Assembly (NCBI GenBank): GCA_043228905.1
Contig: JBHGNT010000003.1
Coordinates: 17,980,001-18,044,000 of the forward strand
Source: Azolla caroliniana
Lineage: Eukaryota > Plantae > Polypodiophyta
Reading direction: 5' to 3'
Length of the DNA stretch: 64,000 nucleotides
Below the pieces are notes generated by a model. It had not been told where the DNA came from. It saw only the letters and a program-made list of their open reading frames with translations, and did no database searches. Positions within the stretch are counted from its first letter, which is position 1. Each line of letters begins with the position of its first letter. Positions 2,006 through 44,566 of the stretch are shown piece after piece. The position numbers were made by a program, and so were the translations under genes.

Positions 2006-2046
2006 TAGATGTATTTTCCATTCTCTCTCTCTCTCCCTCTCTCTCT

Positions 2047-7800: not shown

Positions 7801-10800
7801 AAACAATACCCACCTTAGTTATAAATGATAGCATTGGCTCAACTGCTAGTTTGGTTATGGACATGATAAACTGTTCACATGTACTCTTTAGATTCTTCTC
7901 CAAATCCTGTCATTGCATAATGTTATATTTCTATTCAATCCTTTACATCTGTAGCACCCAGAATTAGCATACAATGTCAAGAACATTTCTTGTAGTACAC
8001 CTTTTTAGCGTCCAGATGATTTTCAGTTACACGAGGTGAAAACGCTCGTGCAAAGGTTGAACGGCTTGTGAAATCAAAGAATGATGCTTGCCCCCGAAAT
8101 ATCCTTCTTAAATGATCCTGATAACGTAGCATAACAAAGTTAAAACTCATAACAGAAAAATCTAGGAATACATGGAGCTACGTAAAGGAGGAATTAATCC
8201 TGTAGTTTGATAATAATACCACATGACAAGATTTCTTAGTTTGTATATTCTGCACTTACAAGAAGATGAGCAAAATCCAACTCCTTGTAAGTTATTGCAA
8301 AATCAATGTCAAATGGTGCAATCTGTCAACAACAATAATAAGCTCTAAGAACAATAATAGCAAATGATTTTTCATGAGTATGTTATTCAAAAATATACGA
8401 AGTTAACTGATAGAAAACGAATTTTCAGGAGCAAGTTTTATGCTACCTGTTCACGCAGTATGAGAAGATATTTGATAAGAAATAACTGGCTATCCATTTG
8501 AGAAGATTGTTTTGCAATCAATTTGCTGGCCTTCTGAAAAGTTGTGCAATCATATTTATGGTTTTAACTTCTGTAAATTTTAGAGTTGACCTCAGTTCAA
8601 TGCAATTTAACAACCAAGCTAACCTGTATTGACATAGAGCATACTGCAATTGAATCCTACAAAAAACCCCTTGTTTTAGAATACAAAAACAACTAAACAT
8701 GGAGGTCATAGGTGAATTTCAGCAATATTACCTGTGCAAGTCCAGTAAAAATTTCAGGTTCCAAGCATCTATAAAGCTTTGATAAGCATGAGAGAGTTTT
8801 CTGAAGAGGTGGGTACAAATCACTGGAAGTTTCCCTCCCCAGTTCACCCTGAATAAAATAATGATCAAGAGATGATGTTCCTGAAATTCATGCATTGTTA
8901 CCGTGCATTTTATAAGAATATGCTTGAAGAATCAGACCTCTTTATCAGAATCTGCTATCAAGTTCACCTCACGCTCAAGCCTCCCCGGATACTCCAGGTC
9001 TTCAGACGATGGTAAAAAGTTTGCAACCTGCACTCCAGATTTTTGTAAATATTGTAGAGACAATTGTCTAAATATCAAGAGATTGATTTGATCAATTTGC
9101 AGACAGGTATTTAAATTTTGGGAAAACTGTGAAATACTCAAGTTTTTTTCCCGCCCTCAAATGCCCCTAATTGTTATTTCCTGTCTTGAGAAATTATGCG
9201 GTCAATTCAACCCATTATAGTTTCTTTGGGAACTGGCCAGGCCCATTATTTGTGGGAATGACACAAATTAACAGCCCTTTCGGAAAAGGACAAAAGAACT
9301 CTGGGTTATTTCAAGGTTTTTCCTTTATACACATCTGAAAAATACATCCTAAAATTAAAATTCATTAATCCACAGAGAATTTTCTGATACGAATAAAGTA
9401 AGGCATATTCATGTGCACAATAAGATCAATCAAACCTATACCTCGTCTCGTATAAATGTCTGAGCCCGAAAAGTGACTCTTTCTTGTACATCAGCCAATA
9501 TACGTATAATTGTTGGTTTTAGAACAGCTACAGATTCCCCCCGTCGACCAATCTCCTCCTCAAGCACTTCAACTTTGAGAATTTCTACAAGCTCACACAG
9601 CAGTTCTAGATCCGCTTCATAAATGAGCTTTGGACGCAGAACATCGTAGAAAACTGTACACCTATCATTATCATTGAAGTGTTAAAAAAATACAATCTGC
9701 AGCTCTCATTAAATGTGAAGATACTTACAAAGGATCAACAAGTGGAGTAAGGTTTGAAACATCCGAGGATGATGACGAGAAGAAGTGATCAAAAAGTTGA
9801 TGTTCTGATTGGCAAACCTGTGAACTGCAAACTATTACTAACTAGCTCTATAAAAACTATCACAGAACTTCATACAAATATTTTCACAACATATTAGTTG
9901 CAACACAGATCTATTATGCTTCACACAACCCTCTTTCCATACATCCACCACTTTCCTTTTCTTTAAGCTTTCAACTTATTATGGGAGAGGGAGATTTCTA
10001 TATAAGACCAAACATCCGTCATAGCAACTAAACGATTACCTGCATCAGGTAGGCACAACCTTGTCGTGTGAAAGATGCCAATGCTTCACTCTTGGAATAT
10101 TCTAGAATGCGTTGCCGAACTACTCCTCGAACCTGTGGCACAAAATAAGCAGTACCATTTCTGCTATTGCACACTTCGCCATGGGAGAAAAGGTAAAAAG
10201 GTGGTTTTACACACAAAAGTGGCATACAAGAGATAAACGCTGCTCACAGTAAAGGGATTGACAATCTTCTAGAATCTGTGCATATTCCATCCTTGATTTC
10301 CTACTCTCTACCTCCTCCATCAATGGCTTAATCTGTAAAACCAGTAATTAAGCATCAACATTTTCTCATAAGTCTCAGATCTACAAACATTGTCTTTCAC
10401 CAAAGTTTTACCTCACTAGCTGCAGCTTTGAACCGTACATACAAAACTGATGTCTCTGCTGCCTCTGATAAAGGCGCTTTTCCATGAACAGAAGCACTTT
10501 CTTTGATACCTGTTTGCACCTATTTTAAATACAATTGATCAACACAAGCCTTCCTAAACCTCCAACATTCTTAATACAAACCCCTGTTGCGAGTTAGAGG
10601 AAAACATCAACTCTCCTTTTATATATATCACAGGCAGTATTGGTTGGTTATTGTGCCTGCTCTTTTCAGAGAAAAATAAAAATGAATAGGAAAGACCCTC
10701 ATTTATTAATAAAAAGTTGAGAGTTATCTCATTGTGAAATATTCTACACTTTTTCTTTTACCGACTTTTTATTTCACTGTGGAAATATGAAGAAAACACA

Positions 10801-13800
10801 ACATTGGATCATGGATGTGTAAAAAAGAAAGTATAATCTATTATAAATCAATATTATCATAAGCTAATAAAAATGAATAGGCAAGACCCTCATTTATTAA
10901 TCTACAAGCCAGAATATGTAGTTTGGTGTGTGTGCGTGCGTGCGTGTTTTGGGGGAGGAGGGGGGGGGGGGGGGAAGTAACATTATAGTCTGGGTAAAAT
11001 AAATGCCCTCCCATCTGGATAATATGAGAATTCTCTATTCATATGCAAGCTCTCATGAACAAGTAATTGTTGGATTACGCGGATACTTATTAACAAATAT
11101 ACAGCCCATTGCATATTATTTACTGCAAAAATTGTTTAGCTTTAATTTTATTCAACTTTGCTAACTTCTTTTTACAAAGTCCTCACATAGGGCCTTCCAT
11201 AAAGAGAGAATCATTCAAAAGGTAATAGTAGAAAAGCACACTAATATAAAGATCAACAGATTCCAGTGCTAAGAGAATTATTTGACATAAACCTAGAAAG
11301 CATAAAATCAAGAATATCATATGCCAAATTACCTGCTGGGATGCCATTTTCAGGACTCCAAGTATGTGTGTCCTCACCATACCCAGTGCTCGAGACTGCT
11401 CAAAGAGAAAAAACAAAACATCGACATAAAATGCTTTGGAATTTCCTCATTTCTATTTTTTCTGAATCAATAAATTATCTGAAGGTAGACATGACCAAGC
11501 ATTAGTCATTTTTTACTCTCATAAAAAAATAGATGCTCATCTACAGCAACAGAATTTAATACTCTTGATTGTTTTATTTAAAGAACTTCCCTAGGACATA
11601 ATCTAATACAGCAAAGAAGGAAAGATATATAAAATCTCTAAATAAACATAATGGCCAATGAGATCTAACAAAAATTACAACTGTTTACATTAACTCATCG
11701 GCAGAAATAACAGATTAAAAATGTATTTCTACCCTAGATTCCTAAAAATAAATGGCTTGAAATGCAATCATGAATCATAAATAACCAACAATCACTTTCA
11801 GTGCTTGATCATTAGAGCTGAAATTTTTTGCCTCTAAAAATACCATAATGGGGTTAGCCAATATAGAAGTTTCAGCAGAATGAGGAGAGTGTCTCAGATT
11901 CATAACAAGAATGCTTCATAAGCACTATAAACATTTTCCAGGTAGAAAAGAAACAAGCAATACCTGGAGTTGTTGAAACTTTACCATATACACAGCTGAA
12001 TCTGCATACTGCGGATTATTGCTAACATACCTGTACAATATATTGTACTCAATCAATCAAGTTTCTAAAAGGTGTATTCAATTACTTATGAGTAATCTGA
12101 TCATTTGAAGTGTGTTAGAATAATTTCACTTCCAAAAGGTCCTTACAATATGCATTCATCAAGTCGTTTCAACAAAGGAAGGAAATGTCCACTGGCAACA
12201 CTCATTGTAGGAGCATAAAACTGTGTTGCAATCTGTTGTTTAAAAATAAAAAATATCATGATTTGCTCATATAGAGATTAGAAAATTCTATGTGCATAAT
12301 ACATTTCTATAAAAATAGGGTGGTTGAAGTTGCAGAGAACATACAGAAGCAAAGATGGACATTACAAACTCATATGAGAAAATGTCTGCCTGTGCTATTA
12401 TAATTTATGTATTTACAAAGCTTAACAAGGCACAAAACGCATAATAATCATCATGAATACATTTCTTTACACCTGTTGGAACTTGAATTCTTTACATGGT
12501 TTTTACCTACCTGTTGTCTTTATAGTTTCATACTGAAAACAATATTGCATCCTACATGAACTACAAGGCCTTTTTTGATAGTGTGAGCTCAATTACATGC
12601 AACAAGTTTTGTTTTGAACACCAAATGAATGTAAACTTTTACTTATCAAAACCAAGGATTATTTCCATGCTTTCAAAAAGATAAGTCCCAAGCTTGAAAA
12701 TGACTGCAATGACTATTTTCATGTTCCTTGTTCAGTAATTAATCATCTACAATCGACAATGTTCATGTTAAATGTAATAGATTGGATCTCTCCATTACAT
12801 TTCTTTGTAAATATATGCACATAGTTAAAACGAAACAAAATAATCCCTCTACTACAGCCTATCATCTGAGTACTTGTGTTATCAAATTTCACAGTAAAAT
12901 TGATGGAATTCTTTGGTTCAAAGTTAAAACTTCATAATAATATTGCATCATTTATAATGTTAATATATATATTTAATATAATATAAACAATGTCCCCTCG
13001 TAATGAAACCTACATGTCCACTTTAGCATGAAGGAACATGTTGAGTGTCAGATAAGTTGTCCCACAATAGGTTGGAACCTAAAATCAATCTTTCATTATG
13101 TTTCAATGATTATCTAGGAAAGCAAATGCACAGCATTTATTCATGCTAGAACTAAATTACTTCATTTCAAGAAAACAACTTACATTTTCCAATTCATCAA
13201 AATAATTAAGCTTGTTTCTCAATGCATTCGCAAATTCCAGCAACCTATCTTTCTCTAGTACCTGCGACCAATTAAGCATCACAAATAAAGGTATGCAACA
13301 GTGACTTCCTGTTACAGACCATCACCACAGTAAAACGAAACAAAAGAAACATTTCTGAACAAAACCTCATATATGAAACCTTATCTTATTTAGAAATATA
13401 ATTTCTTACCAATCTCTCACATGCATCATGCAATGTCTTTGTTTTGGTTGCAACTGTCTGATGTTGTTCTTGCAAGTCATCAAAGAGATGCAACGTGCTA
13501 TCTAGCTACAAATTCAAAAATATTTGAAACTGTAAATTAGTACATATTTAATATTTATACCATCACAAATAAGACCAGGATCTTGGACTTCCAGGACATA
13601 AACAAAAGCCACAGATAAAAACCATCATTCATAGACGAAAAAGAAAAACTGTCCTCTCTTTATATCCTAGTTCCTGAATAAGCAAAATTCCACGCAAAAT
13701 CTCAAGTTTTGATGGGTAAATTTGATCATGACAAAAAGATGGACATAGAAACAAACAAACAAACAAAGATATATTATGTCTTTTAAGAGGCCAAAATGGC

Positions 13801-16800
13801 CTATAAGACCAAATAAGAGATTACATCTTGAGTGTTGTCTCATCTTTGAGAACAAATCAAAATAAAAAAAATATTACACAGTAAATATAAAAGTAAATAA
13901 GATGAAAAGAGAAGAAACGAGGGAATTTGGTTTTTGGCACATGTAAGATTCTCAAGTTAGGTATATTGTAGCTTTTGTCTTCGAAAGATCTCTAGCATAG
14001 GTCGATCCAAAATGGAAATGTCTCCGAACCGAGGGAAGCACCTACGATGGCTGGAGATAATGGCTTTTATCTGTCGATGACAAGGGTGTCGAGGTCGTGG
14101 TCCATGGGGCCGGGGCCTACATGCTCGGCAAATTGCTATTGCCCGATCAATTGTAACCCCTTTGTTATGTCCTGGTCTGGAGCCCATTTGTGTATCCTGT
14201 GATGGACTTGTCGCATTAGTAGGAGTGATGGGGCTAAAGAAAGTTGTGATTGTTCTTTGTGGATGAGCTTGTGTGGCTGTATTCTTCAACAACTTTTCCC
14301 GATGTCTCTTGAGCTCTAGCAAGAAAAGTGCTAGGCATCTTTGGTCCTCATATTCCATTACCTTGCGTAGTGGGCCAAAGCCTTGTTTAAAGAGGCAATG
14401 GTATCTCCCTCTGATTTCATAAAAGACACTACAATGACAAACATAGTGTTCCTCAGATTCCACTCCTTGATGACACAATTGGCAAATTCTCTCTTCTAGA
14501 GGTAGTCGTGTATATCTGCCTACCTCAATTTGTAGCTGATGTGATGAGGTTCGCAACTGCCCTATCACACTACGCAGAGCATAGGATAGATGTATGTCCA
14601 TATAAGGTGGCCTGATGACAAATCCATCCTCCGATGTATGTAAGAAGTGCGTCTTATAGTGGGCCATCTTTGTACCAAGTGGTATTTTGGGGCTGATCCA
14701 TGTTATCTTGTTTTCTAGTTAATAATATCAGTTCAGATCACTCTATTCTTTTCCACTTTGGTCATATTTAGGTGGGGACAGACCAAACTATATTGGAACG
14801 GGGGTAGTGCATTTATACTCTTGCCATGTGACTCGAACCATTGCTGCATTTCAGCATACCAACAATGAGTGTCTCCATTTTCAGCCAGTTGTCTTGATGA
14901 CATAAGTGCCAACCTTGGGTACCTTCGTTTAGGGAGCTCCCGAAAACGTTGGATAAATGTCATTGATCGGAACAATGCCTCGGTTATATTAGGTGTTGCT
15001 CCCATCTCTACCCGGATTATATCGTGGGGCACCGATGCTTTGCTCCTTATCATGCGAGCAATCATTGACACTAAAGGTCCCTCTAAATCTTTCCAATGAT
15101 TTGCCTTGTTAAGAAAGACTCGGTCCCCATGTTTCTACTCCATAGAGAAGAGTTGGTGTGACAAGTGTATCAAATAACCATCGCTTAGTCCGTGACTCTT
15201 GGAACTGCAAATGTGCACATTGTCTCTCGAGAGCACCAAGGGCTGCATATCCACGAGAAAGTCGGGCACAAGCAGCCTCCTGTAAGTAGAACCTAGGTCC
15301 TTTAAAAGTTCAGTTTAAACAGTTTCGGTTAAAATGTTTCCATGGTTTAATTAGTTCCATTTAAGTTTCAAATTTTTTTAAACAGTTTGAGTTTGAGACT
15401 CCCAAACAAAACCACTGACGATGGCTACATATCATCCAAAGTATATGAGAATAAAACCACGTCATCGGCATATAAGAGTATAAAAATAAGCTCTTGCATG
15501 ACTTTTGGGCCATCTAATCCTTCTTCTTTTGCAGCTTTGTTTACAATTTGTTCAAGTTTATCAATGTATAGACCAAAGATTGTGGAGAGAGTGGAAACTC
15601 TTGCTTGACCCCCATGTTGCTCGAGAGGAACTTCGAGCAAACACTATCCATTTGCAATTGGCATCTAATTTGCACATACAATTGTACTAAAACTACTCTA
15701 TACTCTAATGGCATTTTGATATCCAAGTTTTCCTTGAAGTCGACTTTCATCTATAATTACACAAACGAAAACCAAATGATCGACAATGGAATGTTTTGGT
15801 CTAAAGCCTACTTGACCAAGTGCTCGTTTTGATGATGTTCAGCCCACAAGCTAATCTTTTGTTCCATTATACTACTATATAACTTCATCATACCCGAGCT
15901 AACCATGATAGTTTGACATGTTAATGAGAGAAAGATGTTATTAACATATATAATGAGCCAACATTCAACTCAAGTGAACTACACTACATGTTACTTGATA
16001 TATTAACTTTATCTCACAAGCCCGAAAACAAGAAGAGGTTCTTACTTGTTCCATAATCTGATCGCAAGTCAGCAAATGCTCCGTTAATGTCTTCACATAT
16101 CTCTGATATTTTTCCTCTGTCTATGTCCAAGTAAAAGTACCATTATCATAATTTTTATTTCTACATCCAACAATGTAAACAGGAAGTTTTATCAAGTATT
16201 CGAAAACATAAAAACACCAAAACAAACCTCTGACTTCATGGCTGATTCAAGATCTGTGAACCACTTGTAAAACTGCAATTAACTTGTCTCACGAGTTAGT
16301 GCAAGAGCATGAAATTCAATAGCTAGATGTATCATCCAGTAGAGAGAAAATACTTGTGCATTTAGGATATCCTAATGCCCATATGATATCCATATCAATT
16401 GCTTGTAGGGTAGAATATTGTATATGATATAATAATGTTTATACATACACATGTATGTATATACACACATCATAGTTCCCAGAAATTCTCAATTTAGTGC
16501 TGGAAAAAGATATGGAAGTTTCCCTACATTTTGTTTCCTACAGCCCAGAAAATTTGGAGCTTTTTCCAAGTTTTTTCGACAGTGTTTGGAAGAATATTCG
16601 TGGTTTTACTGTGAAGAGAAATCATAAACATTAAATTTTTCAACATGAACTTGCTATTTATCCCCTCAGATTATCTCATTTAACTTAATTGAGTTCAATT
16701 GTGTAATCTCCAATTTATGATGGTTATGGTGAATCCAGATATTAGCAAGTTTAAGAATAACGTAATCCAGATCACATACAAATAGAGCTAAAGATAAAAG

Positions 16801-19091
16801 TGCACACAATGCACATATCTTACAGTAAGTACACTGAATATCTTCAGCATACCTGATGGCTGTTAAGTAGGACTACTTCAGTGGGAAATGCATTATGATG
16901 TGAAGCTTCATCTGATGCAAAGGAAGCATCAGAAAAGTGTCCATTCAAAGACTCTTCAACCTGTATGATATAAAAGAATAAACATTTGTTAAAAACACAT
17001 ACAAATGTTGTATAAGCTAACTTATAAGACTTTGTTATTGTGGTAGCCAACTTTCTTTCGAATAGTAAAATGCAGGAAACATCGCATCGAGAAAGGACTT
17101 ACATGAGAAGGAATTGGCCGCTCTGCAAATGTTTGAGCAACAGCTGCAACAGCTGCTTTTTGTCCTTCTGTCAATGGAGCATTCTACAAAACACAAAAAC
17201 GAATGATAAGGAAAATATAGCTAGCTTGGCATGCCGCAAAAATGACCTGAATAAGCATCAAATATTGTACATGTCTTTCTGCCATCCTCATCGAGAGTGA
17301 GACGATTAATCTCTTCTCCTACTCACAGAAATGGCTTATCCATTGATAATGGAGCATGAAGAGGTCTAGACCCTAGTCAAGGAATATGGTGCATGTATAC
17401 ACACATGACCAAAAAACATGAGATTAAGGGGGGAGCAGCATATGCTGACAGTAATGATTACCTAGTGCATCAATCAACCACAACTTCCTGACCATAAAAT
17501 TCTGTCAAAGTGAAGTCTCACATCCACTGATATAGCTATTTTCACTGCCAATGGGTTCCCAACATGTCTCGTTATCTATTCCAGAACTTGAAATGTAGTC
17601 CAGAGGATGCAGCAGATGGGGATGAAATCAGCATTTAGTGCACCATTGGGTTCCAGAACGACAACACACCTGCTGCCTTTCTTCATCCCCACACCCATTT
17701 CTACTCAAGATCATGTCTGCCTTTCATTGGAGACACCATCTCTTACACATGCACTGCAAACATCATACACCACCATTCCCTTCACACATGAGGTACCCAA
17801 TATATGCTCATCTGAGGCTCACAATGGGTGTTTCCTTTTTCATCCATTCACATCACAATCCACATTCACAACCCAAATACTATCTATCATCCATACATCA
17901 ATCATCAGCCACTTCCCATACACTATACACATGGAACATACTCCTCCCCAAAGGACTATGCTGCAAAAACAATGGTATGGTGATGTGTAGAGATATTCAC
18001 TAGGAGAAAATACAGAGAGGGAAGTTAGACAACAGATGAGCTTCTTACATGCCACAAGAGAAGGGACTTGATGGATGCACCATCTACTCATGAGTATGGA
18101 TAGCACTGTAGCATGGCACAATATCATGTGATGATTATGCAAAGTTGATGGCAATTTCCAATACCGTTAGCACCCAAACCACAACCTTCCAGCTCTGACT
18201 TCTTCACTCCAGGCATGGTAGTGTGATATTTGGCCCTTGCAACAAGATAGGTCTGCAGCCATAAATGGTTGCAGAGTAAGCACTTCGTCTATGCAGCCAT
18301 CACTAAATCATTGCTTCAACTGGATCAAGGAGGAGGGATTCCCAGACTGTAGAATAGACATACAATAGTATCTATTCACAAATCCGGTGATTCTAACATC
18401 CAGGGGAATCAGGACAATCACGATCAACCACACCCAAAAAATACGTGTAACGGTACTTGAAGTGGAGCTCAACTCATATGCAAAAAGAGAGAGGATTTGG
18501 AAGCCCCTGAGACTGGCCAGGCTAGTTTTTAGACGAGCATTCGCCACCCTAGATCTTATCTTTCTTTCCCCTGTTATCAGAGATCGTATAGGATGCCACC
18601 TAGATTGAATACCTTCAGCCTTATAGGTCATTTTGTTCCTTTGAATCCTGAGGACGAAAATACATCATCATTATCATCTCTTTGTCTCTGCTAGGTGGCC
18701 AATCATTGACTTCCCAAGGACGATAATGCATAATCATCAACATCATTTATCTCTTAAAAGTGATCAATGACTGGCTTCCTGAGGACAATAATACATCAAA
18801 TTCATTACCATCATCAGTTCTTTGTCTCTCTGAGGTGATCAATCATCAGCTGCCGTGGAAAATAATACGCCTTTCTATCTATCTATATCATTTATCCCTC
18901 AGGTAGTCAGTCAATCGGCAGACTTCCAGAGGACAAAAATACATCATACCCCTCTGTCTCCCTTAGGTAGGTAATCAAACCCTTTCTGTATGAAGAGGAG
19001 AAAAGAGTACCTGATCCCAAGTGGATGCGAAAGTGTAGCCTTTGGAAACAGCAGCAGGTCTTGCAGCAACAGTCGGAACACGAGCTGCCAT
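4845..19091 (-). CDS. COG3: Conserved oligomeric Golgi complex subunit 3 (Sec34 family), 24 coding exons in window, 3' end outside window
   Basis: Manually spliced exons (minus strand, all GT-AG, phases consistent): 19011-19091, 17103-17183, 16853-16960, 16228-16272, 16046-16120, 13410-13505, 13184-13261, 12147-12232, 11964-12030, 11333-11395, 10412-10519, 10228-10332, 10040-10132, 9729-9817, 9442-9661, 8938-9027, 8732-8848, 8624-8656, 8447-8533, 8260-8322, 8001-8117, 7814-7906, 6127-6237, 4845-4945. Total 2207 nt, no stops. Translation includes [123 protein letters not shown] and [19 protein letters not shown], which match plant COG3 as I recall it. The last exon ends in phase 2, so the terminal exon is left of position 1. 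Confidence 0.96.
5365..5822. mobile_element. Possible old AT-rich MITE
   Basis: Ends CATAGTTGTAAC / TTAACAACTATAG are imperfect inverted repeats; internal ~43-bp tandem duplication at 5376-5454; no TSD found. Confidence 0.35.
6475..6552 (+). mobile_element. Isolated LINE 3' tail (hairpin plus microsatellite)
   Basis: GATGTAATCTCTTG..AGGCCATTTTGGCCTCTTAAAAGACGTTAATATATCTTTCTTTC is near-identical to 3201-3275. Confidence 0.8.
13748..15890 (-). mobile_element. RTE-X-like LINE (copy B) with RT fragment in COG3 intron 5
   Basis: ORF 13957-14667 is nearly identical to 2366-3073. RT motifs NMGVKQ, FGLYID and LLYADDVVL; same 3' hairpin; (TTTG)n tail; interrupted at ~15305-15422. Confidence 0.88.
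18650..18980. repeat. Imperfect tandem repeat, ~5 units of 65-75 bp, in COG3 intron 1
   Basis: GAGGACRAWAATACATCA..TGTCTC..AGGT..CAATCA..ACTTCC-like units start near 18650, 18716, 18781, 18855 and 18929. Confidence 0.6.
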
Positions 19092-20534
19092 TCTGCAGAT
19101 CTAAACAAGCACACACACCCACACCCCTCTGTGCAGGACAGTGTTTTGGTAGCTCTGTCTGTAGTTTTTCTTTTCTTTTCTACCTAGTCTAAAACAAAAG
19201 TTACAGATTTACAAAACTAGCCCCTACAAGAGTTTTGGTATTGTTTAATGTCTTTGCTTCTTCCTTTTTTAATTCCTCGCTTAAAACTAATAAGCCCCAA
19301 ATCCTGAAAATATACAAATTTAGTCTCGCTATTTTACATTCTTTACATTACAAATGAGGCCACACTCATCAATCTTAAGCATTGCATTGCATTGCAATTT
19401 GCGATGTGGATCTTTGAGAAAGAGTTGCACGTAATCGCCCCAGTTATTATTCGTAAATACTTTGAACCAAAACTAAGTCGCCAATTGCAAGTTTTATAGC
19501 AAAGAAATAACAATTGCATAGATAGATATAACGGTATTGGTAAGGTTGTCCAATAGAGACCAGAAGGTCATGCATTAAACCCCTACATTCTTTAGTGGCA
19601 TTTAGCCAATAAAGAAAAATATGTATGGTATAATATATAATAGAGAAGTGTAAAAGTTGAGCCTTAAATTCAACCCCTGTGATTAACAATATAACAACTT
19701 ATGACTATGGTAAGCTAATTACAATAAATAATGCTAGCAACATAGGGTTATTTCAATGCATTTTTCCTTACTCAAATGTTGATTTTCCTTTCGATGCATA
19801 AAGTAACAAAGCATTATTGACCAGTTTTTTGTAAATCATACAAATGCTTTTGTATATTTCTGTGAGATTTGTTGCCTTCAGAAATATTTCCAGCAATAGA
19901 GTTCAATATTTCTTAAACATTCCATACGAATATGGGAAAGAGGTGCACACATTGCCCATGGTTAGAAACTTTTGTATAAAGAATTAATTCTAAGGGCACC
20001 AATGAAATAAAAGTTACTCTTCAAGGTTAAGTTTTCGTTCTATGCATGAAATAGTAAGAAGATAGGATATCATTTAAAAAAATTGCATATTCCCATTAAA
20101 CTTTTGTCATCTATCGAATGAGTGTAAAAGACAATAAGGTCAAAATATAAAACTAATGGAACAAATAGACATGCTTGATTATGTTGCATGACTAGTTTTG
20201 GTATGATAAGGATTGTTGATCAAGCAACCCAATGAATAAATATTTGCAATGTCTGGGTACACAACGGTTAACACTTTGAAATGTTCCAAGCAACCCAACT
20301 CAACCTCAATGTTGCAAAGTGCCCATTCACAAAGTCCAATGGGATGTTGCTCAAACATATATTTAGCGAAGACATTGTGCTTTACCAAGGCAAGGTGAAG
20401 GTGTTGGCATAAAACGATGTCTCCTTCCAATTTGTATCCTAGTGTGAACTCGTCCAAAGAGTTAGGGTTTAGTATATAAGCAATAACCTAACATTGTAAA
20501 GAAGCACCACTTGATCATCTTGTAAATCAAGTCT

Positions 20535-22484: not shown

Positions 22485-22929
22485 TATCATGATATGACAA
22501 GACTCGAACCCATGACCTTATGTTACATGGGTCGAGCTCTTACCATTAGGCTATATATTGTAATACAAAAGATATTATTTTCATTTAAGTTTTACTATAG
22601 AAAATTGATGTATATTCCAGATTTCTCTAGAACATTCTAGAAACTTCAGGAGTACTCCTGAGAACACTATAAAAGGAGGCACAAGGCATTATTTCGAACC
22701 AAATCAGTTCAACACCAGTCTTAAGCCTCCTAACTACTATTGTATATTCCCTTAACATAATATATATCTTTTGTTATCCTCATTCTTTCTCTCTCTCTCA
22801 CTCACTCTTTCATTCTCTCGAGAGTTCTACACCTCCCTTACTACTAATCCTCATCTTTTAGTACTAATTCCTTCTCTGTCTTACTACTGTTCCTAACAGT
22901 ACTTCTCTGTCTTAGTACTGCTCCTGACA
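22485..22929 (+). repeat. Gypsy 5' LTR
   Basis: Direct repeat of 27723-28159; TATA-like CTATAAAAGG at ~22667. Confidence 0.93.
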
Positions 22930-25900
22930 GTTTGAACCGATTTTCTCCCCTTCCTTCTCTTCCTTTATCTTCTTACTTCTCCCTCCCTTCATACTAATCT
23001 CTTATTCCTCTTTTCTCTCATACTATGGCCACTGTTAGCACTCAAGAATATCAATTTGTTTTTTCGGAGTTGCAATGCTTGAAAGAGAAGTTTCTCGCAC
23101 TGGAACAAGAAAATCAATGACTGTTGGGGGAGCTTCAACAAATCTCCTTAGAGAAGCAGCAGACGCAACAACAACATAGGGAACTAGCGTTACGCGTGCA
23201 ACAGCTCGAAGCAACCATAGTAACAATGCAACAACAAGGACCCAATACACAAGGGGTTCATAAAGAACCCAAGATCGGCCTTCCCATGAAATTCGATGGA
23301 ACCCGATCGCAGTTTAGAGGATTCCTTAATCAGGTACGATTAGTCATTCAAATGCATCATTCTCGATATCCCACCGATGCATCACGAGTGGGACTAGTAG
23401 GCACTCTACTTAGTGGCGTGGTTCGTCCCCCTATTAGAAAAAAGCTCTCCCTTGTTAAATAATTTCGAAGAGTTTATTACCGAGTTTAAAGCCTGTTTTG
23501 GAGATACCGACAGTGTTAGAACAACAATCAACAAAATCCGAAGATTGCGCCAAGGTGAGCGGCCGACCTTGGCTTATGCTGCGGATTTCCGTCTTCTTGC
23601 CACCGATATTCCCTGGGATGACCAGGCACTAATGGAGCAATTTCATTTTGGCCTATGTAATGATGTTAAAGATTTACTCTTAACTTTCCTCGAGGAGCCA
23701 AAGTCATTGACAAAAGCAATCAGTCGTGTGGTGTGATGCAATAATCGCCTCTTCGAACCACATTCGGAATGTTAGTTCCAAATGCCAATGACAAGATCGG
23801 AGCCCACCTACGCTTCAATCGTAGCAAAGCCTTTCCCAAGGAAGTCATTCAATATGTCTCCAACAAATACTCCGACTCCAATGGAAATCGACACCACATG
23901 TCGTTGCGGACCACTATCGGAAGAAGAAAAGCAGCGACGCAAGACAAATCGATTATGACTTTATTGCGGTGGACCGGGGCATATTGCAGTGAACTGTCCC
24001 CATCGGCCAAAAAGGCAGGTAAATCAAATAACCGCTAGTACTAATAGTACTAAACTCGAGTCTATTTCTCTAGATGTGTCTGATAGTCCTAACAGCCCAA
24101 GCCTTTCAAACAAATTTGAAATCCTTAGTCAACTAGAAGAAGAGTTAAACAATTAAGTCTAGCCAAAATAGGAGCCATTTAGTTGGACAACCCTAGATCT
24201 ATGCAGCCCATTAGTGGTTCCATTTCCTCTAAGCAAGTTAGCAATGTGGTCTTAGCTCAAGTAATGGTTAGTACTAAAAGTACTCCTCCAGTACATGTCT
24301 TAGCACTCTTAGATTCCGGAGCCAACTCTTGCTTCATGGATAGGAATTTTGCCCAAGCTCATCAGATATCCCTAAAAAAACTCCCGTGTCAAGCCTTTGT
24401 AGAAGTCATTGATGGTCATCCTATTGCTTCCAGAAATATTATAGAAGATTCTGAACCCGTTAATATTGTCCTAGATAACTTAGTGTGTGTAGTATCATTT
24501 AATATAATTAGTATCCCAGAACATCCCATTGTTTTGGGATTACCATGGTTTGAATTACATAACCTAGCCATAGATTGGAGAACAAGAGAAATACGGTGTC
24601 GACAAACCCAAGGATCTACTCATAAAATTGCAACCATTTTGCTACATCAGTTGCGTGAGGAAGGATGCAAGGAAGAAATGTTTCTCATCGCAATATCAGT
24701 AAACCCCTCCGGTATCAATAAAGAGGAGTTCACCGTTCAACTTCCAAAGAAGTATCGTCACTATGCTGATGTGTTCAATAAAGTACGAGCCAATACGCTT
24801 CCTCACCATCGACTGTATGATTGCCCCATCGATTTACAACCGGGAAAAGAGCCACCATGGGGACCGATCTACAATTTGTCACCAACCGAGCTAGAAGTTC
24901 TTCGAGCCTATATAAAGGAGAATTTGGCAAGTGGTTTCATTCGACATTCGAAATCTCTAGCCGACGCACCCATTTTCCTCGTCAAGAAAAAGGATGGATC
25001 ACTTTGTCTCGTCGTAGATTACCGTGGATTGAATAAAGTCAACATCAAGAATAGGTATGCACTTCCCCTTATCTCAAGTCTTTTAGAACGGATCAATGGT
25101 GCTAGGTTCTTCACAAAGATCGACTTAAGAGGAGCATATAACCTCGTACGGATCTGACCAGGAGATGAATGGAAATCTGCGTTTTGCACCACATATGAGC
25201 ACTTCGAGTATACGATCATGCCATTCGGCCTCACTAATGTGGCAACAGTCTTCCAACAAATGGCAAATGATATATTCCGAGATCTCTTGGATGATTTTTT
25301 GATCATCTATTTGGATGATCTGCTGGTTTATTTGAAGATCCAAGAAGAGCATGATTCTCATGTACTATTAGTACTAAAATGACTTCGAGAACATGGTCTT
25401 TATGCAAAGCTAGAAAAATGTAGTTTCGGGTGCAACCAAGTAGAATTTTTGGGCTATGTCATTTCCTCGGAAGGCATCTCCATGGATCCAGTTAAGGTCA
25501 AAACGGTAGTAGAGTGGTAGACTCTACATTCGTTGCGAGATGTGCAATGCTTTTTAGGCTTTGCCAATGTTTACCACAAGTTCATACAACTCAAAGCTTG
25601 TTCTCCCTCTCACACAACTTACCAGGACGAGACAATCGTTCGTTTGGTCTGAAGAAATAGACATGGCTTTTGAGAGTCTTAAGAAGGCATTTACATAAGC
25701 TCCTATTTTAGCTTATGTTGATCCAGAAAAACCATTCATCATTGAAGCAGACGCGTCGGATTTCGCCTTGGGTAGCATTCTGTCTCAACAAGGCAATGAT
25801 GAAAAGCTACATCCTGTGGTTTTCCATTCACACAAGTTTGACACTGCGGAAATCAACTATGAAATTCATGATAAGGAGCTATTAGCAATAGTGGACTCTT

Positions 25901-27722
25901 TTACACAATGGAGGCATTTTCTAGAGCCCTCTTCTCATCAAGTCATCGTATTCAATGATCACAAAAACCTTGCCTACTTTCAGAATGCTCGTGTGTTAAA
26001 TCGACGTCAAGCTTGGTGGTGCCCAATTCCTCACTCGTTTCGACTTCAAAATTACATATCGTCTGGGGAAGCAACAAGGGAAGGCAGATGCATTATCACG
26101 GCGCTCGTATCTAACACCGCGTCCCGGTGAGCCGGCTTTCGATAACCAAAAGCGAGTAATCATGGGACCGGCACGACTGCAAGCAATGCAGGTCTTCGGT
26201 ATGCCCTTGGATTCCCACGTTATCGATACCATACGTGAGGACTTGAAGACAGATGCTTTCGCTCAAGCCATTCTAGCACAAATTGATCCCTCTCGAGCAT
26301 CTTGTTCACAGTCGCAACAACTAGGTACGGACTATCGACAATTCAAATGTCATGATGGATTACTATTCTTTAAGAAACTCTTGTATGTTCCTAATGGTAC
26401 TTGTCGCCTTCAAGTAGTCCAAATTTGTCATGACACATATACAGCTGGGCATTTTGGTAGTACTAAAACACTAGTTTTAATACAATGATGATTTTGGTGG
26501 CCCCATATGCGACAATTTGTCGAAGATTTTGTTCAGACTTGTGATACATGTTGCAGAGCAAAAATTCCAAGGCATCATCCATATGGTTTATTAGAACCAT
26601 TACCAATTCCAAGGAAGCCATGACAATACATTGCCCTAGATTTCATCATAGATCTTTCGGTCTCTAAGGGATTCGATGCGATCTTAACAATAGTAGATCG
26701 ATATACAAAGATGGCCCATTTCCTACCATGTACTAAGGAAATCTCTAGTGAAGAAACCGCCGCAATTGTCATGCGTGAAGTATGTCGGCATCATGGCCTT
26801 CCCGATAGTATCATCAACGATCGTGGACCCCAGTTCGTCTCGAAGTTCTGGAAGCACCTCTTTAAAATGCTTAAGGTCACTTGTAACCTCTCCTCTGGCT
26901 ACCAACCGCAAACAGACGGCTAAGCAGAACGAACAAATCAAACATTGGAGCAGTATCTTCGGTGTTTTTTAAGCTATCATCAAGATGACTGGGCGGATAT
27001 TCTCCACTTCGTCGAATTTGTGTATAATAACTCTGTTCACTCATCAACAAAGGTGACACCATTTTATGCTTACACGAGCTATCACCCTCGGTGGTGTGTA
27101 TTTGAAACCCCAAAGTTACCTACAAATCCTTGTGCAGAGGATCGTTTGGAGCGGCTACGTAAGATACAAGCCGATTTATATACTCATCTACAACAAGCTC
27201 AACAAACACAGAAGGTTTACGCGGATCGTCATCGGCTTCCATCCAGTTTTGACATTGGAGATCGGGTGTGGCTACTATGACGACACATCAAGACTACTCG
27301 CCCATGCGAGAAGTTGGATTATCGACGATTAGGTCCTTTCCGTATTATCAAAAAGATTAATGATGTCGCTTTTCGTCTCGATCTACCTCCGCAGCTACGG
27401 ATACATCCGGTGTTCTCTCCTAGAACCCTATCAGGACAACACCATCCCAGGTCGGATTAAACCACCTCCACCCCCGATCGAACTTGAAGATGGACCTGAG
27501 TAAGAGGTTGCCGCCATCCTCGATTCCAAGATTGTTCGCAACAAGCTCTACTATTTAGTCGATTGGCTAGGATATAGTCCCAACGAGCGTACTTGGGAAC
27601 CGATAGAGAATGTGACCAATGCTCGTGCTCTTCTTGAAGACTTCCATTGTCAATATCCAGACAAACCGGGTCCTCAATCCAAAATGACTCGTGACACTCA
27701 TCACGTTTTAAAGGGGAGATAG

Positions 27723-28159
27723 TGTCATGATATGGCAAGACTCGAACCCATGACCTTATGTTACATGGGTCGAGCTCTTATCATTAGGCTATGTATTGTA
27801 ATACGAAGGATATTATTTTCATTTAAGTTTTACTATAGAAAATTGATGTATATTCCAGATTTCTTTAGAACATTCTAGAAACTTCATGAATACTCCTGAG
27901 AACACTATAAAAGGAGGCACAAGGCATTATTTCGAACCAAATCGATTCAACGCCAGTCTTAAGCCTCCTAGCTACTATTGTATATTCCCTTAACATAATA
28001 TATATCTTTTGTTATCCTCATTCTCTCTCTCTCACTCTTTCATTCTCTCGAGAGTTCTACACCTCCCTTAGTACTAAACCTCATCTTTTAGTACTAATTC
28101 CTTCTCTGTCTTAGTATTGTTCTTGACAATACTTCTTTGTCTTAGTACTGCTCTTGATA
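27723..28159 (+). repeat. Gypsy 3' LTR
   Basis: Starts TGTCATGA right after the PPT; direct repeat of 22485-22929. Confidence 0.93.
27868..27890. promoter_or_regulatory. Perfect heat-shock element (5 alternating nGAAn units) in the Gypsy LTR
   Basis: GAAcaTTCtaGAAacTTCatGAA just upstream of the TATA box; a 4-unit version is at 22630-22647 in the 5' LTR. Confidence 0.7.
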
Positions 28160-31177: not shown

Positions 31178-32858
31178 TGTCGTGAAGATTTTCGGCAATG
31201 GTGTGAAAATCGCATAAAACATACGAAATCGAGTATGAATCATATAAAACAATAATAGTGAAAATATTATTTTAAATATGTTTAATATCTTAGTACAAAA
31301 AGATGGAGGTCTGCAAGAGCTTTCGAATGCACCTTACTACATAAGAAACAGACATCTAAGCCTCAAGTTATGTGGGTAGGAAGTTTGCAAAGGAAAAGAG
31401 AAAAATAAAACTGTGAAATATCCCACATAGATAGGAAAAGTTTAGGCCCCAACTATATAAGCAGATTGAGATCCATCATGATTCATATATGTGTTAAGAG
31501 CACATAAGCAATAGTTGGACTGGAGCCACTTTTGTCTAGATGGACATATGTGGGTAAGTCGCCGGATATGGCTAAGTGCCCGAACCGGTTGGTGAAGAAA
31601 CTCAAACCGGTTGACGACAGAATCGGAAACCGGATGGAGCCAGCAATCGGTGACCGGATGCATCCGGCAATTGGTGATCGGACGGAACCGACAACCGGTG
31701 ATTGGCGACGGAACCGATGATCGACGATCCAGCGACTGAGGGTAACCGGCGGTAACTGGCGACAACGATCGACGGAGCCAGTGACGGAGCCGGTGAGCCG
31801 GCGACAACCGACGACGGAACCGGTGACGGAGCCGGCAATCGGTAACCGGATGCATCCGACAACCGGTGACCGAACGGTTCTGACAACTGGTGATCGGCGA
31901 CGGAACCGATGATCGATGATCTAGCAACCGACGGAGCCAGAGACGGAGCTAGTGACGGAGCCGATGGCAACCGACGGAGCCAGAGACGGAGCTAGTGACG
32001 GAGCCGATGGCAACCGACGGAGCTGGCGAGATCAACATCCGGCGACGGAGCCAGTGACGGAGCCGGTGAACACCGACGACGTAGCCGATGAGCCGGCGGC
32101 AACCGACGACGGAACCGGTGACGGAGCCAGTGAACACCGACAACGGAGCCGACGAGCCGGCGGCATCGAGCGAAGGAGCCGGTGACCGACAAGCGACTCA
32201 GGATGCGGACTGGGCTGGACCAAACGGATGCAAATAAGACGGATCGGTCGGGTCGGTTGATCGCGGTGCATGGTGTCTTAAAGATATTTGATCCAAAAGC
32301 CTAATAGTATTTTGTGCATAAAAGAAAAAGATGTAAGCAAGAATCGAACTTAACACCTCCAAGATAGGAAGCAATAGGCTTACCATTAAGCCAAACCATT
32401 TCTTTAGGGATTATATTTTTATCATTATAGCTTTACATGGAAATTTTCATGTGTGAGAGCTTAGATGATGACATGGCAAGCATGCATTGTGTGCATGTCT
32501 TGTACCCTCACATGCACCATATGCAGGGGGGCATCTATAAAAGAGTGGAGGAATCAAGCAAAAGGGGGGATTTTTATCAAAAAAACCTTTGTACTTTATA
32601 TCAAAATTAAAATTAAGAAGAAAATTCGTTATCCAATTGATGTATTAATCTTGTTCTTCAAATCTAAAGTCAAGAGTTCAATCTTAATCTCTCTCTCAAT
32701 CTAAAGTCAAGCGTTTTATCTTATCTCAATCTCTCTCTCTCTTTCAATCTATCTTAAATACTTTCTCGCTAAAGCTTGTGCGAACTTCGAATCCTTCCGG
32801 TCCAAAACCCTGGCGGTTCCGCCTCATGATCCGCACGTAGTGACGGATCTTCACGACA
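31178..32858 (+). mobile_element. 1.68-kb non-coding insert (probable solo LTR) with 4-bp TSD
   Basis: Perfect 12-bp inverted termini TGTCGTGAAGAT/ATCTTCACGACA; CCGG on both sides; the host Copia frame (ERPEKGVVETGD) is restored on removal; TATA at ~32536. Confidence 0.85.
31600..32200. repeat. GC-rich compound minisatellite
   Basis: Many copies of GACGGAGCCRGT, GGCAACCGACG and GAACCGGTGA motifs. Confidence 0.8.
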
Positions 32859-35254
32859 CCGGAAAAGGGAGTTGTCGAAACCGGAGACAACACTCCTCAC
32901 CCGATCGAGCATGTCAAAGAAGTCCTTTTGAGTCATGTCGGACAAAAGGGAATGTTGATGAATGTTTTACATGTTCTGACAATCACAAAGAACCTGGTGT
33001 CAGTCTGACAGATTGTTGACCAGGGGATGTAGGTGTGGTTTACTCAACTTGGGTGCTTCATTGAGGAAGAAGGTGCTTCATTGCGCAAGGGCACTGAGAC
33101 GGGAGGATGTTCATCCTCGACACCAACAACGTAGGCACCACTTTGTTCGCAAAAGGACAGAAAGTCGAGTCAGATATCGACTTCTGGCACAAGCGGATCG
33201 GCCACGTCAATTATCAAAGGCTTTAGGACATGTAGTTGAAACAGGTCGTGTTCGTACTGTCGAAATTCAGTGGCTAGAAGGCCCAAAATTGTGAAGCCTG
33301 CCAACTCGGGAAACAACACCGAATTCCATTCCCCACCAAAAGAAACTGGAGCCATAAGAAGCTCGACTTAATACATTCAGACGTATGGGGACTGGCAGAG
33401 AACGTTAGTCTTGGCATGAGTTGATATATTGTCTCCTTCATCGACGACTACAACCGGCACACGTGGATCTATCTCATTGAGAAGAAAAGCGATGTCTTCG
33501 ATTGTTTTTGGAACCTACAAAGTCTTGTCAAATAGGAAACAGAGAGAAATATCAAGTGGATACGGTCTGATGGAAGAAAAGAATATTTTTCCGGCCAATT
33601 CAACAATTATTTGTAACAGAAAGGAATTCGGAGGGAATTCAGTTGCCGATACATGCTAGAACAAAACGACATTGCTGAGAGGAAGAATCGGTCAATTGTG
33701 GAAGTGGCATGAGCAATGCTTGAGCAGAAAAGCATGCCTAAGTTCTACTTGCTGAGGCGGTTCAGACGACCGTCTACATCCAAAATCGGATCGGGAAGAA
33801 GGTGTCAGCACAGGAGCTGTATTTCGGGCGGAAGCCGAACTTAAGACACCTTAGGATATTCAGTAGCATAGCTTATGTGCGTGTACCGGATGAGAAACGG
33901 AGGAAGTTAGATCCGATGTTGGAGAAGTGCATACTAGTCGGCTATTCACATGAGAAAAAGAGGTATAAGTGTTATAAACCCCGGACAAAGACAGTTCGAG
34001 TAAGCCGAGATGTCAAATTTGACAAGTCGGCATCATGGTACTCTTTATTGATTCCGACCTCCGACCGGACTCAAGAAGATGAGGCTAGTGAGCCCGAAAC
34101 AATCCAGGTAGAAGAGGAAGAAGAGTTTGGTACTTTAGATGAGAGTCCAATTTCATTTCTGCTGAGTGGGCCGAACGAGCGACTGAGTCGGAACTGTCAC
34201 GACACAGTGGCATAAAATACATAGTTGGTGAGGATTGAACCTACTACCTCACTTCAACAAGATATCATGTCTAACCATTTGGATGGGAACACGTATTTGT
34301 ATATAGTAGTTTAGTACTATATATTCTAGCATATAATACATTCCAGAATATTTTAGTCTTTGGTATATTCTAGAAATATTCTATGGTGTATTCTAAATAG
34401 GTATATTCTAGAGGTATTTGTCAGGTATATTCTAGAGATATTTCTCGAGTATATTCTAGAGATATTCCATCTCAGAACTTGTATAAATACTTGTAACCTC
34501 CTTGGTTCCTTTCAAGGGATTCAACACTAGTCATTGACACATCAATCTAGTATTCTCGTTTCGCCCCATCTTGTCTCCTTGATCTTTATCTTTGTCTTCA
34601 TTCTATTTTGTTGTTCCTGAGTTTCTAGCCTCATCACTTCTAGCTCTAAGTTCACAACCCATTGTTCGTAGCGCCATCATTTGTGCTCCGTCCCTATCCA
34701 TAGTTGGTGTGTCTGTGACAGTTTGAATCCCTTCCAACTGGAAGCATCACCCACCTTGGTCATCGCCCTTGCTTCTAGAGTTACCATCGTCATAGTCCTT
34801 GCTTCTAGAGTTACCGTCATCAACATCCTTGTCTTCGACATCATCATTTTCAGCACCTCTTCGCCCAACCTTCATCGTCATCAACACTACTTGTTATCAT
34901 TTATAGGTATCATTTTGCATCACGATTTTGGTGAGGATTGCTTTTGATTGCTCACTTTCCCATTTCCGGTGGGGTCACAACCACTCACTTTCCTGGTGGG
35001 GATCAGATCATTGTTCGCTTGCACTCCATTTTCATTATAGTTCAAGTCTCCCGCCACTTTCCTTTGGTGAGGACCAATTTCAATCGCTCAACTTCTAGTT
35101 TCGGTGGGGGTCACAACCGCTCACTTTCCTAGTGGGGATCACATCAGTTTCTTGCTAGCGCTGCCGTTTTTGCTGTGTTTTCGGTCAACCTCAACTATTT
35201 ACCCTCTCATAATAGAAGAAGTCGAGTCGACCGCTTCACGTGCACTGTTTTGCC

Positions 35255-36005
35255 TGTTCGTGTTCTAGTTCTCGGTGAGGCCCGCATGGTCGCTCATGCC
35301 CGTCGGTGTTCCAGTTCCTTGTGAGAACCGCATATGGTCGCTCACATTCCAGTTCTCGGTGAGGACATCATGGTCGCTCACTCCCATTCATGTTCGAGTT
35401 CCCCATGAGGGCAACACATGGTCGCTCATGGTCGTTCGTGTTCGAGTTCCCGGTGAGGGCTACATGGTCACTCACGCCCGTTCGTGTTCGAGTTCCTGGT
35501 GAGGGCCGCATGGTCGTTCACTCCCATTCGTGTTCGAGTTCCTGGTAAGGGCCGCACATGGTTGCTCATGCTCGTTCGTGTTTGAGTTCATTGTGAGGGC
35601 CACATGGTCACTCACTCTCGTTTGTGTTCTAGTTCCCGGTGAGGGCCGCACATGGTCGCTCACTCCTGTTCGTGTTCCAATTCCCGGTGACAACCACATG
35701 GTTGCTCACTCTATTCGTGTTCCAGTTCCAGGAGAGGGCCGAACATGGTTGCTCACTTTATTCCTTTTCTAGTTCTTGGTGAGGACTGCATGGTTGCTTA
35801 CGCCCGTTCGTGTTCCCGATGAGAACTGCACATGGTCGCTCATGTCTGTTCGTGCTCCAGTTCTTGGTGAGGATCGCATGGTCACTCACGCTTGTTCGTG
35901 TTCCCGATGAGGACCGCACATGGTCGCTCACGGCCATCGGTGTTCCCGTCTCTGGTGAGGACCGCACATGGGCACTCATGTCTGTTGGTGCTCCAATTCC
36001 TGCTC
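35255..36005. repeat. Tandem array, ~16 units of ~46-48 bp
   Basis: Consensus approx. GTTCGTGTTCGAGTTCCCGGTGAGGGCCGCACATGGTCGCTCACGCCC; the ATGGT anchor recurs from 35287 to ~35968. Confidence 0.9.
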
Positions 36006-36578
36006 ACCCCTACACGACGCTTCCAAAAAGGTAGTCGTAAAGGGGAGGATAATGTCATGACACAGTGGCATAAAATACTTAGTTTGTAAGGATTGAACCT
36101 ACTACCTCACTTCAACAAGAAATCATGTCGAACCATTTGGATGTGAGCTTGTATTTGTATATAATAGTTTAGTACTATATATTCTAGCATATAGTACATT
36201 CCAGAATATTCTAGAAATATTCTATGGTGTATTCTAAGTAAGTATATTCTAGAGATATTTGTCGGGTATATTCTAGAGATATTTCATTTCAGAACTTGTA
36301 TAAATACTTGTAACCTCCTTGGTTCCTTTCAAGGTATTCAGCATCAATCATTGACACATCAATCTAGTATTCTCGTTTCCCCCCATCTTGTCTCCTTGAT
36401 CTTTATCATTGTCTTCATTCTCTTGTGTCATTTCTAGTGTCTTAAGTTCATCGTCTCGTCGCTCCCAACTTCCTGAGTTTCTAGCCTCATTGCATCTAGT
36501 TCCACGTTCGTAGCCTTATCAATTGTAGCCTGTCACTCATAGCCCCATCATCCATACTTCGTCCGAGTCCGCGGTTGG

Positions 36579-37033
36579 TGTTACGGGCATGACCATTTAA
36601 TATCCCGTGGTGAGAATTTACCGTAGTATTCTATACACATGGATAAGTGTGAGGGTTAAACGAGAGTGTAAAGAAGGGGAGGATTACTTTTAATCCTCAG
36701 GATTGAGACAACCCATTAGGTCAAGTGTGAACTTGCCTGGGGGCCTTGGGTATCGCTATAAATAAGAGGCCTAGCTACCTTCATTTGATCATCTTTTGAC
36801 TACATCGAGACTCTGCTCTTGTGGTGGGTCAACTCTTGTAGCGAGTGCGCCAGCACTAGGTACGACTCGACGCCACGACGGTGGTATGGGACGCCGATCG
36901 AGGCTCGAGTCCGTCTCAATCCCTTCGCTCGGGGGTGGTCGGGTGGATCGACACCCTTCTTTCTCTTTCTCCTTTCTATCTATCATTTGTTTATCCTTAT
37001 CTTAAGCTTACTTTAGTACTTAGATCTCTAATA
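36579..37033 (+). mobile_element. Solo LTR inserted in the 3' LTR of the non-autonomous element
   Basis: TGTTAC...CTAATA flanked by perfect TSD GTTGG; TATA CTATAAAT at ~36756. Confidence 0.85.
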
Positions 37034-44400: not shown

Positions 44401-44566
44401 AATCAATGTAAAAAATCTCACATCGGAGTTAGTAAACAAATATGAGAATTGAACGTAGGATCTTTCACACCGTAAGCGAGAATCATGTCACTAGACCAAA
44501 TTGTCGAATATGGGTATATAATGGTCGTATTCATATTGTCCCATTTGGACATACTAGGTTTAGGCA

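Follow-up and report, generated by a model that had tools for sequence, protein, structure and literature searches.

Organization of the locus

The analyzed window, a 64-kb stretch of nuclear DNA on Azolla caroliniana contig JBHGNT010000003.1, is occupied from approximately 20.4 to 58.6 kb by a nest of LTR retrotransposons. A multi-exon COG3 gene is located at ~4800-19100 on the minus strand, and the nearest named relatives of one of its exons come from ferns (79-85% identity, against 63-76% for lycophyte, seed-plant and algal sequences). Two inverted copies of a non-LTR-like repeat of 1.24 kb, 94.5% identical to each other, lie at 2046-3283 and 13747-14986, and the segment 58850-59158 on the minus strand corresponds to a plant SRP RNA gene or a recent pseudogene (100.9 bits, cut-off 105).

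The element at 22485-28159 (plus strand) is a 5.7-kb coding element, inserted in a Copia integrase region and flanked by a 5-bp target-site duplication (TSD) with one mismatch. Its 5' LTR (22485-22929) harbors, on the plus strand, a TATA-like box (22667-22675). On the opposite strand the same LTR carries the cassette considered here, composed of an A box (22553-22543), a 32-nt gap and a B box (22510-22501), thus spanning 22501-22553 and scoring 46.6 bits on the weight matrix described below. The LTR edge is 16 nt beyond the end of the B box, the A box is located 113 nt from the TATA-like box, and the tRNA-like extent of the sequence is 22489-22560. Between the cassette and the TATA-like box there is a three-unit pattern (22630-22647, plus strand) which, like its counterparts elsewhere, we take to be heat-shock-element-like. 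The LTR is followed by a self-priming site (22930-22945), complementary at 11 of 12 positions to LTR nucleotides 22701-22712, and by a broken gag-protease-reverse transcriptase-RNase H-integrase-chromodomain region (23401-27695) with stops and frame changes; domain matches within the element comprise gag, protease, RNase H, integrase and chromodomain. The 3' LTR (27723-28159), preceded by a polypurine tract and 92.7% identical to the 5' LTR, contains a second copy of the cassette (27739-27791, minus strand, 40.3 bits). The element possesses both the Gypsy domain order with a chromodomain and self-priming, and because these are the traits reported for the plant Tcn1 clade (PMC6317226), it is called Tcn1-like; the integrase tree contained no named reference.

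A non-coding self-priming LTR element occupies 34195-37051 (plus strand, 5-bp TSD GGAAC) and spans 2.9 kb, including a nested insertion. Its 5' LTR (34195-34720) and its interrupted 3' LTR (from 36053) carry cassettes at 34232-34285 and 36090-36143, respectively, both on the minus strand and with a 33-nt gap (28.1 and 25.3 bits). The similar LTR start, the self-priming and the 5-bp TSD suggest that this element is a relative of the chromovirus clade. Between 35250 and 36000 it also contains a tandem array of 46-48 nt units with the word GTTCRAG.

Two solo LTRs complete the set. The first (31178-32858, plus strand, 1681 nt) is flanked by the 4-bp TSD CCGG, has a TATA box at 32535 and carries its cassette at 32341-32393 on the minus strand (32.5 bits), 141 nt from the TATA box and 1163 nt from the outer end of the LTR. 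The second (56654-57426, minus strand, 773 nt) has the TSD ACGC/ACGT, a TATA box near 56935 and a cassette at 57145-57197 on the plus strand, antisense to the LTR (29.1 bits), 206 nt from the TATA box and 229 nt from the outer end. The two LTRs constitute one lineage; 311 of 678 columns align, and the best islands are the cassette and the U5 end. Both have 4-bp NCGN target duplications, an insertion preference reported for Phygy (PMC6317226), and on this basis both are probably Phygy-like. No internal region for them was found among the 79 relative loci described below, and the cassette pattern of this NCGN lineage gave 0 matches in viral contigs. Contig depth over its cassette bins was 70,000-84,000 (X11) and 176,000-178,000 (X12), two other organisms, against 22-107 and 100-1299, respectively, in bins 30-150 nt from the cassette, with only the LTR ends rivaling it, although summed contig depth does not equal copy number and further repeats may contribute to it. 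Contigs bridging 152-179 nt at 57214-57395 point to shorter LTR variants with the cassette closer to the outer end.

Occurrence and orientation of the cassettes in the window

The initial annotation had listed six A-box/B-box cassettes in the window, and all six were recovered at the same positions with the same boxes and gaps: five on the minus strand (22501-22553, 27739-27791, 32341-32393, 34232-34285 and 36090-36143) and one on the plus strand (57145-57197). A single correction concerns the A box of the chromovirus 3' LTR copy, which ends in GA and not, as annotated, in GG; among the variants listed, family contigs mostly have GG at this place. The textbook pattern (TRGYNNARTGG with at most two mismatches, 30-35 nt, RGTTCRANYC) yielded 6 matches in the 64 kb, compared with a mean of 0.19 (maximum 3) in 200 local Markov shuffles, and the same pattern with one mismatch yielded 4, compared with 0.01. 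On a weight matrix trained solely on 16 loci from outside the window, the six cassettes scored 25-47 bits, while the best of 60 shuffles reached 18.7 bits. The next-best matrix match in the window (12.5 bits, at 61037) falls inside the shuffle range and was dismissed, and none of the remaining LTRs of the window scores on the matrix. A loose SINE-finder-like pattern was abandoned as a detector for want of discrimination (18 matches vs 10.8), and B-box matches at 2193 and 14839, which lie in two copies of one non-LTR-like repeat and do not score on the matrix, were likewise set aside.

All six cassettes are located within LTRs and antisense to the TATA box of the LTR. A TATA-like box is present on the opposite strand in each case, at 113, 113, 195, 154, 141 and 206 nt from the A box, so the cassette lies upstream of the TATA box and points away from it, as had been proposed. 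The orientation of the LTRs is independently supported in two elements, in which the self-priming site pairs with the LTR ~30 nt past the TATA box. Three-unit heat-shock-element-like patterns occur in the window at 22630-22647, 27868-27890 and 36199-36216, and seven of the nine window matches to such patterns are found in cassette-bearing LTRs.

The cassette had been ascribed to LTRs of several different families. Its recurrence across four elements stands, but these elements represent two Gypsy-type lineages and not four independent families: probably a self-priming Tcn1-like chromovirus with its non-coding relative, and the two Phygy-like solo LTRs with NCGN duplications.

Distribution among relatives of the chromovirus

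A search with an integrase-chromodomain alignment retrieved 77 metagenome loci (from the best 80 of 338 confirmed matches) and two viral-collection loci, the viral contigs giving one locus for each of two protein queries. The chromovirus clade consists of 44 loci and the window element, together 45 of the 80 tree rows (loci from the best 80 of 338 matches), with an SH-aLRT support of 87 that comes from a quick tree only. Since four of the 44 loci are too short to reach the LTR, 40 were evaluable. The cassette was found at the start of the 3' LTR, that is at the LTR outer edge, in 36 of these 40 loci (best 80 of 338 matches), in antisense orientation in all 36, and it was absent or disrupted in the other four (L024, L033, L038 and L040). 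Outside the clade, 30 of 35 loci were evaluable, five having no visible LTR, and the LTR regions of these chromoviruses contained no cassette (0/30, best 80 of 338 matches); three matrix matches sit in flanks.

Within the clade, the gap of the cassette measures 33 nt in 25 loci and 32 nt in 11 of the 36, where 30-36 nt were allowed. A TATA-like match was detected in 25 of 36 loci, in 24 of them 112-207 nt away, and 7 of the 11 loci without such a match are cut short. The distance between cassette and TATA box is 112-207 nt in both lineages, and that between cassette and LTR end ranges from 11 to 1163 nt. The 38 nt upstream of the cassette are 66-95% AT, so that the cassette combines A and B boxes at tRNA-like spacing with AT-rich upstream DNA, the features of a Pol III type 2 promoter. 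An unbroken pol frame of at least 1000 aa is retained by 15 of the 36 cassette-bearing clade loci. Heat-shock-element-like patterns lie between cassette and TATA box in 17 of 29 relative loci and are missing in 12.

Several further A/B-box or tRNA sequences were noticed in these loci. In one clade subfamily, a second antisense A/B-box unit with a 31-nt gap is located within pol, between the protease and reverse transcriptase parts (L009:2954-3005 and L054:4854-4905, minus strand). The AT-rich flank DNA of an outside-clade locus contains a unit with a 32-nt gap, possibly a SINE head (L052:2665-2717, plus strand), and a tRNA with GUC anticodon (45.8 bits) is present in GC-rich DNA upstream of a chromovirus remnant (L010:128-199).

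In the chromovirus clade, 11-63 nt separate the B box from the outer LTR end, and thus from the integrase attachment end. This proximity would suit a role in integration, with each LTR offering later copies a landing pad of the Pol III kind, or with TFIIIC bound to the cDNA end tethering the integration complex. Ty3, DGLT-A and Skipper-2 do target tRNA genes (PMC5911963). Such a role is nevertheless very unlikely, given that each of the four cassette-bearing elements in the window is inserted into coding remnants of other retrotransposons, with no A/B box of another element beside it, and that the cassette of one solo LTR is separated from the end by 1163 nt.

Conservation of the boxes and of the spacer

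Divergence of the cassette was compared in those 20 of 24 chosen family representatives whose integrase ends are unbroken, giving 190 pairs that were binned by integrase identity. In pairs with <60% integrase identity, the fixed positions were 92% (A box) and 97% (B box) identical, compared with 25% for the mid-spacer, 34% for upstream and 24% for downstream sequence; the degenerate box positions had 35% (A) and 46% (B), and the variable-loop remnant 73%. Choosing the 20 loci via the matrix introduces a bias in these values, which is mild because 36 of the 40 evaluable clade loci pass. Aligning the first 150 nt from 22 families, degenerate ones included, without use of the motif gave the values 0.73 for the B box, 0.53 for the A box, 0.47 for the spacer, 0.42 for downstream and 0.22 for upstream sequence, the last being lowered by gaps. 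The similarity of the spacers correlates with that of the integrases (Mantel rho 0.28, P 0.006), which fits vertical descent of the cassette.

According to the initial annotation, the boxes were kept while the spacers differ. The first part and the constancy of the spacing were borne out, but the spacers retain remnants of the tRNA D-loop and variable loop (AGGTY). In a comparison of 19 families, in which box conservation is inflated by the use of the best-preserved member of each family, G46 and T47 of the variable-loop remnant, outside the textbook boxes, were present in all 19, and the 5' half of the A box had drifted (position 10 is G in 8/19, position 11 is Y in 17/19).

Conserved positions that include the variable-loop AGGTY beside the B box, together with an antisense orientation that makes the genomic RNA complementary to tRNA, might indicate that the cassette acts in genomic RNA, pairing with host tRNA loops for packaging, dimerisation or strand transfer. 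A tRNA-binding role has been proposed for HIV-1 U3-R and for the Ty3 bipartite site. Here this explanation is quite unlikely: G-to-A changes, which G-U pairing would tolerate, are absent at G46/G53 (19/19) and rare at G18/G19, and the spacer has a fixed length yet fits no single tRNA. Moreover, a tRNA primer is dispensable for the chromovirus and its non-coding relative, both of which have self-priming sites (PMC6317226). The same self-priming sites rule out the cassette as a primer source.

Relation to tRNA genes, SINEs and Pol III transcripts

The earlier remark that no cloverleaf is evident agrees with the results of two programs. ARAGORN called none of the six window cassettes, either by default or from -ps95 to -ps80 (below -ps90 its calls are noise), and an Rfam scan of the whole window found no tRNA; against the Rfam tRNA model the segment 22489-22560 scored 11.3 bits and one relative 21.4 bits, under the cut-off of 29. 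Compared with permuted arms in 19 representatives, no tRNA arm paired better (acceptor 52/133 vs 45.7, D 43/76 vs 40.8, anticodon 35/95 vs 32.8, T 31/57 vs 32.5). The cassette thus lacks the cloverleaf with paired arms above ARAGORN and Rfam thresholds that defines a tRNA gene.

The window also contains a decayed tRNA gene (44434-44505, minus strand), called by ARAGORN at -ps95 and scoring 17.9 bits in Rfam, at whose 5' end a Copia-type LTR starts (44502). It was considered as a third LTR cassette and dropped (8.4 bits, LTR context unproven). A possible second copy of this remnant at ~44300-44372 (score 57, shuffle maximum 56) is not clearly above the shuffles. At 44784-44793 (minus strand), a B-box match lies 5 nt past the start of a segment that resembles an LTR and is related to the Copia LTR 44502-45370; the gap to an accompanying A-like box is too short.

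Hallmarks of SINE2 insertion, namely an own TSD and an A-rich tail, were likewise absent: an A-tail was found at none of 42 cassettes, and flanking repeats of at least 8 nt occurred in 5 of 42, as expected by chance (6.0 in mismatched pairs). These data bear on the explanation that the cassette has no function and is either left over neutrally from an old insertion of a SINE or tRNA or the product of repeated recent insertions. Such relics are conceivable, with tRNA-like pieces present elsewhere in these repeats (44434-44505; pol of L009 and L054) and "not a few" LTRs reported to contain part of a tRNA (PMC10886601). An identity of 92-97% at fixed box positions beside a spacer at chance level, the missing tails and flanking repeats, and the loss of the stems, unexpected for recent insertions, make the neutral explanation extremely improbable and have largely refuted it.

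The initial annotation had proposed a recurring LTR module, to be given up if the cassettes had their own TSDs and tails, if their orientation were random, or if the boxes were no more conserved than the spacers. Tails were absent and flanking repeats at chance level; orientation was antisense in 6/6 window and 36/36 relative cassettes; and fixed box positions were 92-97% identical, against 25% in the mid-spacer. A recurring, selected LTR module is supported by all three results. Judged from its sequence, the cassette is a real, selected, clade-wide and tRNA-derived putative type-2 promoter element.

Transcription of the cassette would yield an antisense RNA, and a functional one could pair with the U3 edge, the polypurine tract and the end of pol in the genomic RNA, giving rise to small RNAs or tuning reverse transcription. 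That the boxes are kept at the spacing of intron-less tRNA genes suggests transcription competence, and the window chromovirus family can form a hairpin of -24.4 kcal/mol (calculated without shuffle control). In foamy viruses, A/B-box Pol III miRNA genes are located in U3 (PMC3993851). A T4 run follows the cassette within 30 nt in 10 of 36 clade loci and within 60 nt in 20, but no terminator occurs within 60 nt in the other 16, including most of the window chromovirus family, and its position is not conserved. The mid-spacer is at chance identity and no structure is shared, so that an antisense Pol III unit with a functional RNA is, in our view, unlikely. A CAA near the predicted start was found in 6 of 36 clade loci.

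Proposed function

What is conserved, as far as alignments can tell, is a protein-readable sequence with fixed spacing and a bounded distance to the TATA box, and not an RNA shape. We give roughly even chances to the interpretation that the cassette is a DNA docking site for TFIIIC/TFIIIB, keeping the Pol II promoter of the LTR open or shielded from silencing. Because neither a terminator nor a structure is conserved, this DNA-level role of TFIIIC would account for the data better than an antisense RNA unit. A and B boxes are recognized by TFIIIC, which places TFIIIB on AT-rich DNA within ~50 nt upstream; complexes of this kind restrict the spread of silencing in yeast (PMC13578239, PMC5911963). 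By analogy, TFIIIC would bind both boxes of the cassette and position TFIIIB toward the TATA box, where the DNA is AT-rich (66-95% AT). The resulting complex would exclude nucleosomes or stop heterochromatin spreading from the flank, and the predicted Pol II promoter, 110-210 bases from the cassette, would thereby be kept open. As the cassette faces outward, any Pol III would travel toward the flank and not toward the Pol II promoter, and any antisense RNA would be a by-product. As to origin, the ancestor of the chromovirus clade may have taken up a tRNA or SINE head a single time, the NCGN lineage having either gained the cassette in a second event or acquired it through LTR exchange. More tentatively, and with some doubt, the cassette may be a self-carried chromatin barrier of the tRNA-gene type, an outward TFIIIC/TFIIIB site, gained in two Gypsy lineages, which would insulate the LTR promoter and allow these families to remain active within heterochromatin. 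A small remaining probability falls to other readings, for example that the box motif is read by another factor.

Several observations stand against the DNA-level role. An intact cassette is missing in 4 of 40 clade loci, in all 30 evaluable loci outside the clade and in the other LTRs of the window, and LTR promoters therefore work without it. Pol II must read through the copy in the 3' LTR. The conserved variable-loop remnant lies outside the A and B boxes, the A box has diverged in its 5' half, and CAA is present in only 6/36 loci. In yeast, proximity to a tRNA gene can repress a Pol II promoter.

Comparison with known systems and significance

Helenus/TRIMp3, which the initial annotation did not mention, is the closest published group with tRNA sequence in LTRs (PMC10886601), sharing with the present elements tRNA-derived sequence in both LTRs, conserved boxes A and B and the absence of a functional tRNA. 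Helenus elements are non-coding, 311-1263 bp long and tRNA-primed, and their tRNA-like part, proposed as their own promoter, is in sense orientation in the 3' half of the LTR in the supplement entries examined; autonomous elements are argued in the same source to need Pol II and to share little LTR sequence with Helenus (PMC10886601). The cassette described here is antisense, located on the U3 side beside the TATA box and carried by coding-competent Gypsy elements. Although the tRNA-derived A/B-box sequence in the LTRs is common to both, these elements are not Helenus, because three defining features fail: a 5.7-kb coding element and pol frames of at least 1000 aa in 15/36 relatives replace the short non-coding element, the tRNA-like part is antisense (6/6 and 36/36), and both complete window elements self-prime in place of a tRNA-complementary primer-binding site. 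The same work mentions "not a few" Repbase LTRs with a tRNA part and pursued only the short ones (PMC10886601), and LTRs similar to those described here may therefore stand uncommented in Repbase.

Cassandra also has a Pol III promoter in plant LTRs, but a 5S-derived one of type 1, in sense orientation, that drives the RNA of a non-coding TRIM (PMC10886601). Foamy viruses are similar in having A/B-box Pol III units in the U3 of an autonomous LTR element that retains its Pol II promoter; their units produce defined stem-loop RNAs with terminators (PMC3993851), whereas the cassette faces outward and has no conserved structure or terminator. The tDNA/TFIIIC barriers of yeast embody the same proposed principle, with A/B boxes as docking sites that limit silencing (PMC13578239). 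With respect to the host elements, chromodomain and self-priming are shared with Tcn1 chromoviruses and the 4-bp NCGN preference with Phygy (PMC6317226, PMC2864245); the term "polymerase III" has 0 occurrences in the main texts of these two papers, and passages of a fern genome paper (PMC6786969) contained nothing on an antisense LTR cassette. No description of an antisense A/B-box cassette in LTRs was found in the literature searched, mostly without subscription papers and supplements. Divergent tRNA genes upstream of trypanosome small-RNA genes, reportedly described by Nakaar in 1994, are said to provide upstream tRNA-type boxes that serve a companion promoter; there the companion is a host Pol III gene, here it is the TATA promoter of the LTR.

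The Pol III promoters known from LTRs either take the place of the Pol II promoter, in short elements without coding capacity, or produce miRNAs, and a selected, outward-facing A/B-box pair beside the TATA box of coding-competent elements represents a different design. Contigs matching the two LTRs tested numbered 1082-5891 per run. If active, such abundant LTRs would scatter TFIIIC sites genome-wide, with effects on chromatin folding and competition with tRNA genes. Should the tentative barrier interpretation prove true, the cassette would give plants their first example of a Pol III-factor insulator and would represent an anti-silencing device that acts in cis and has spread in very many copies.
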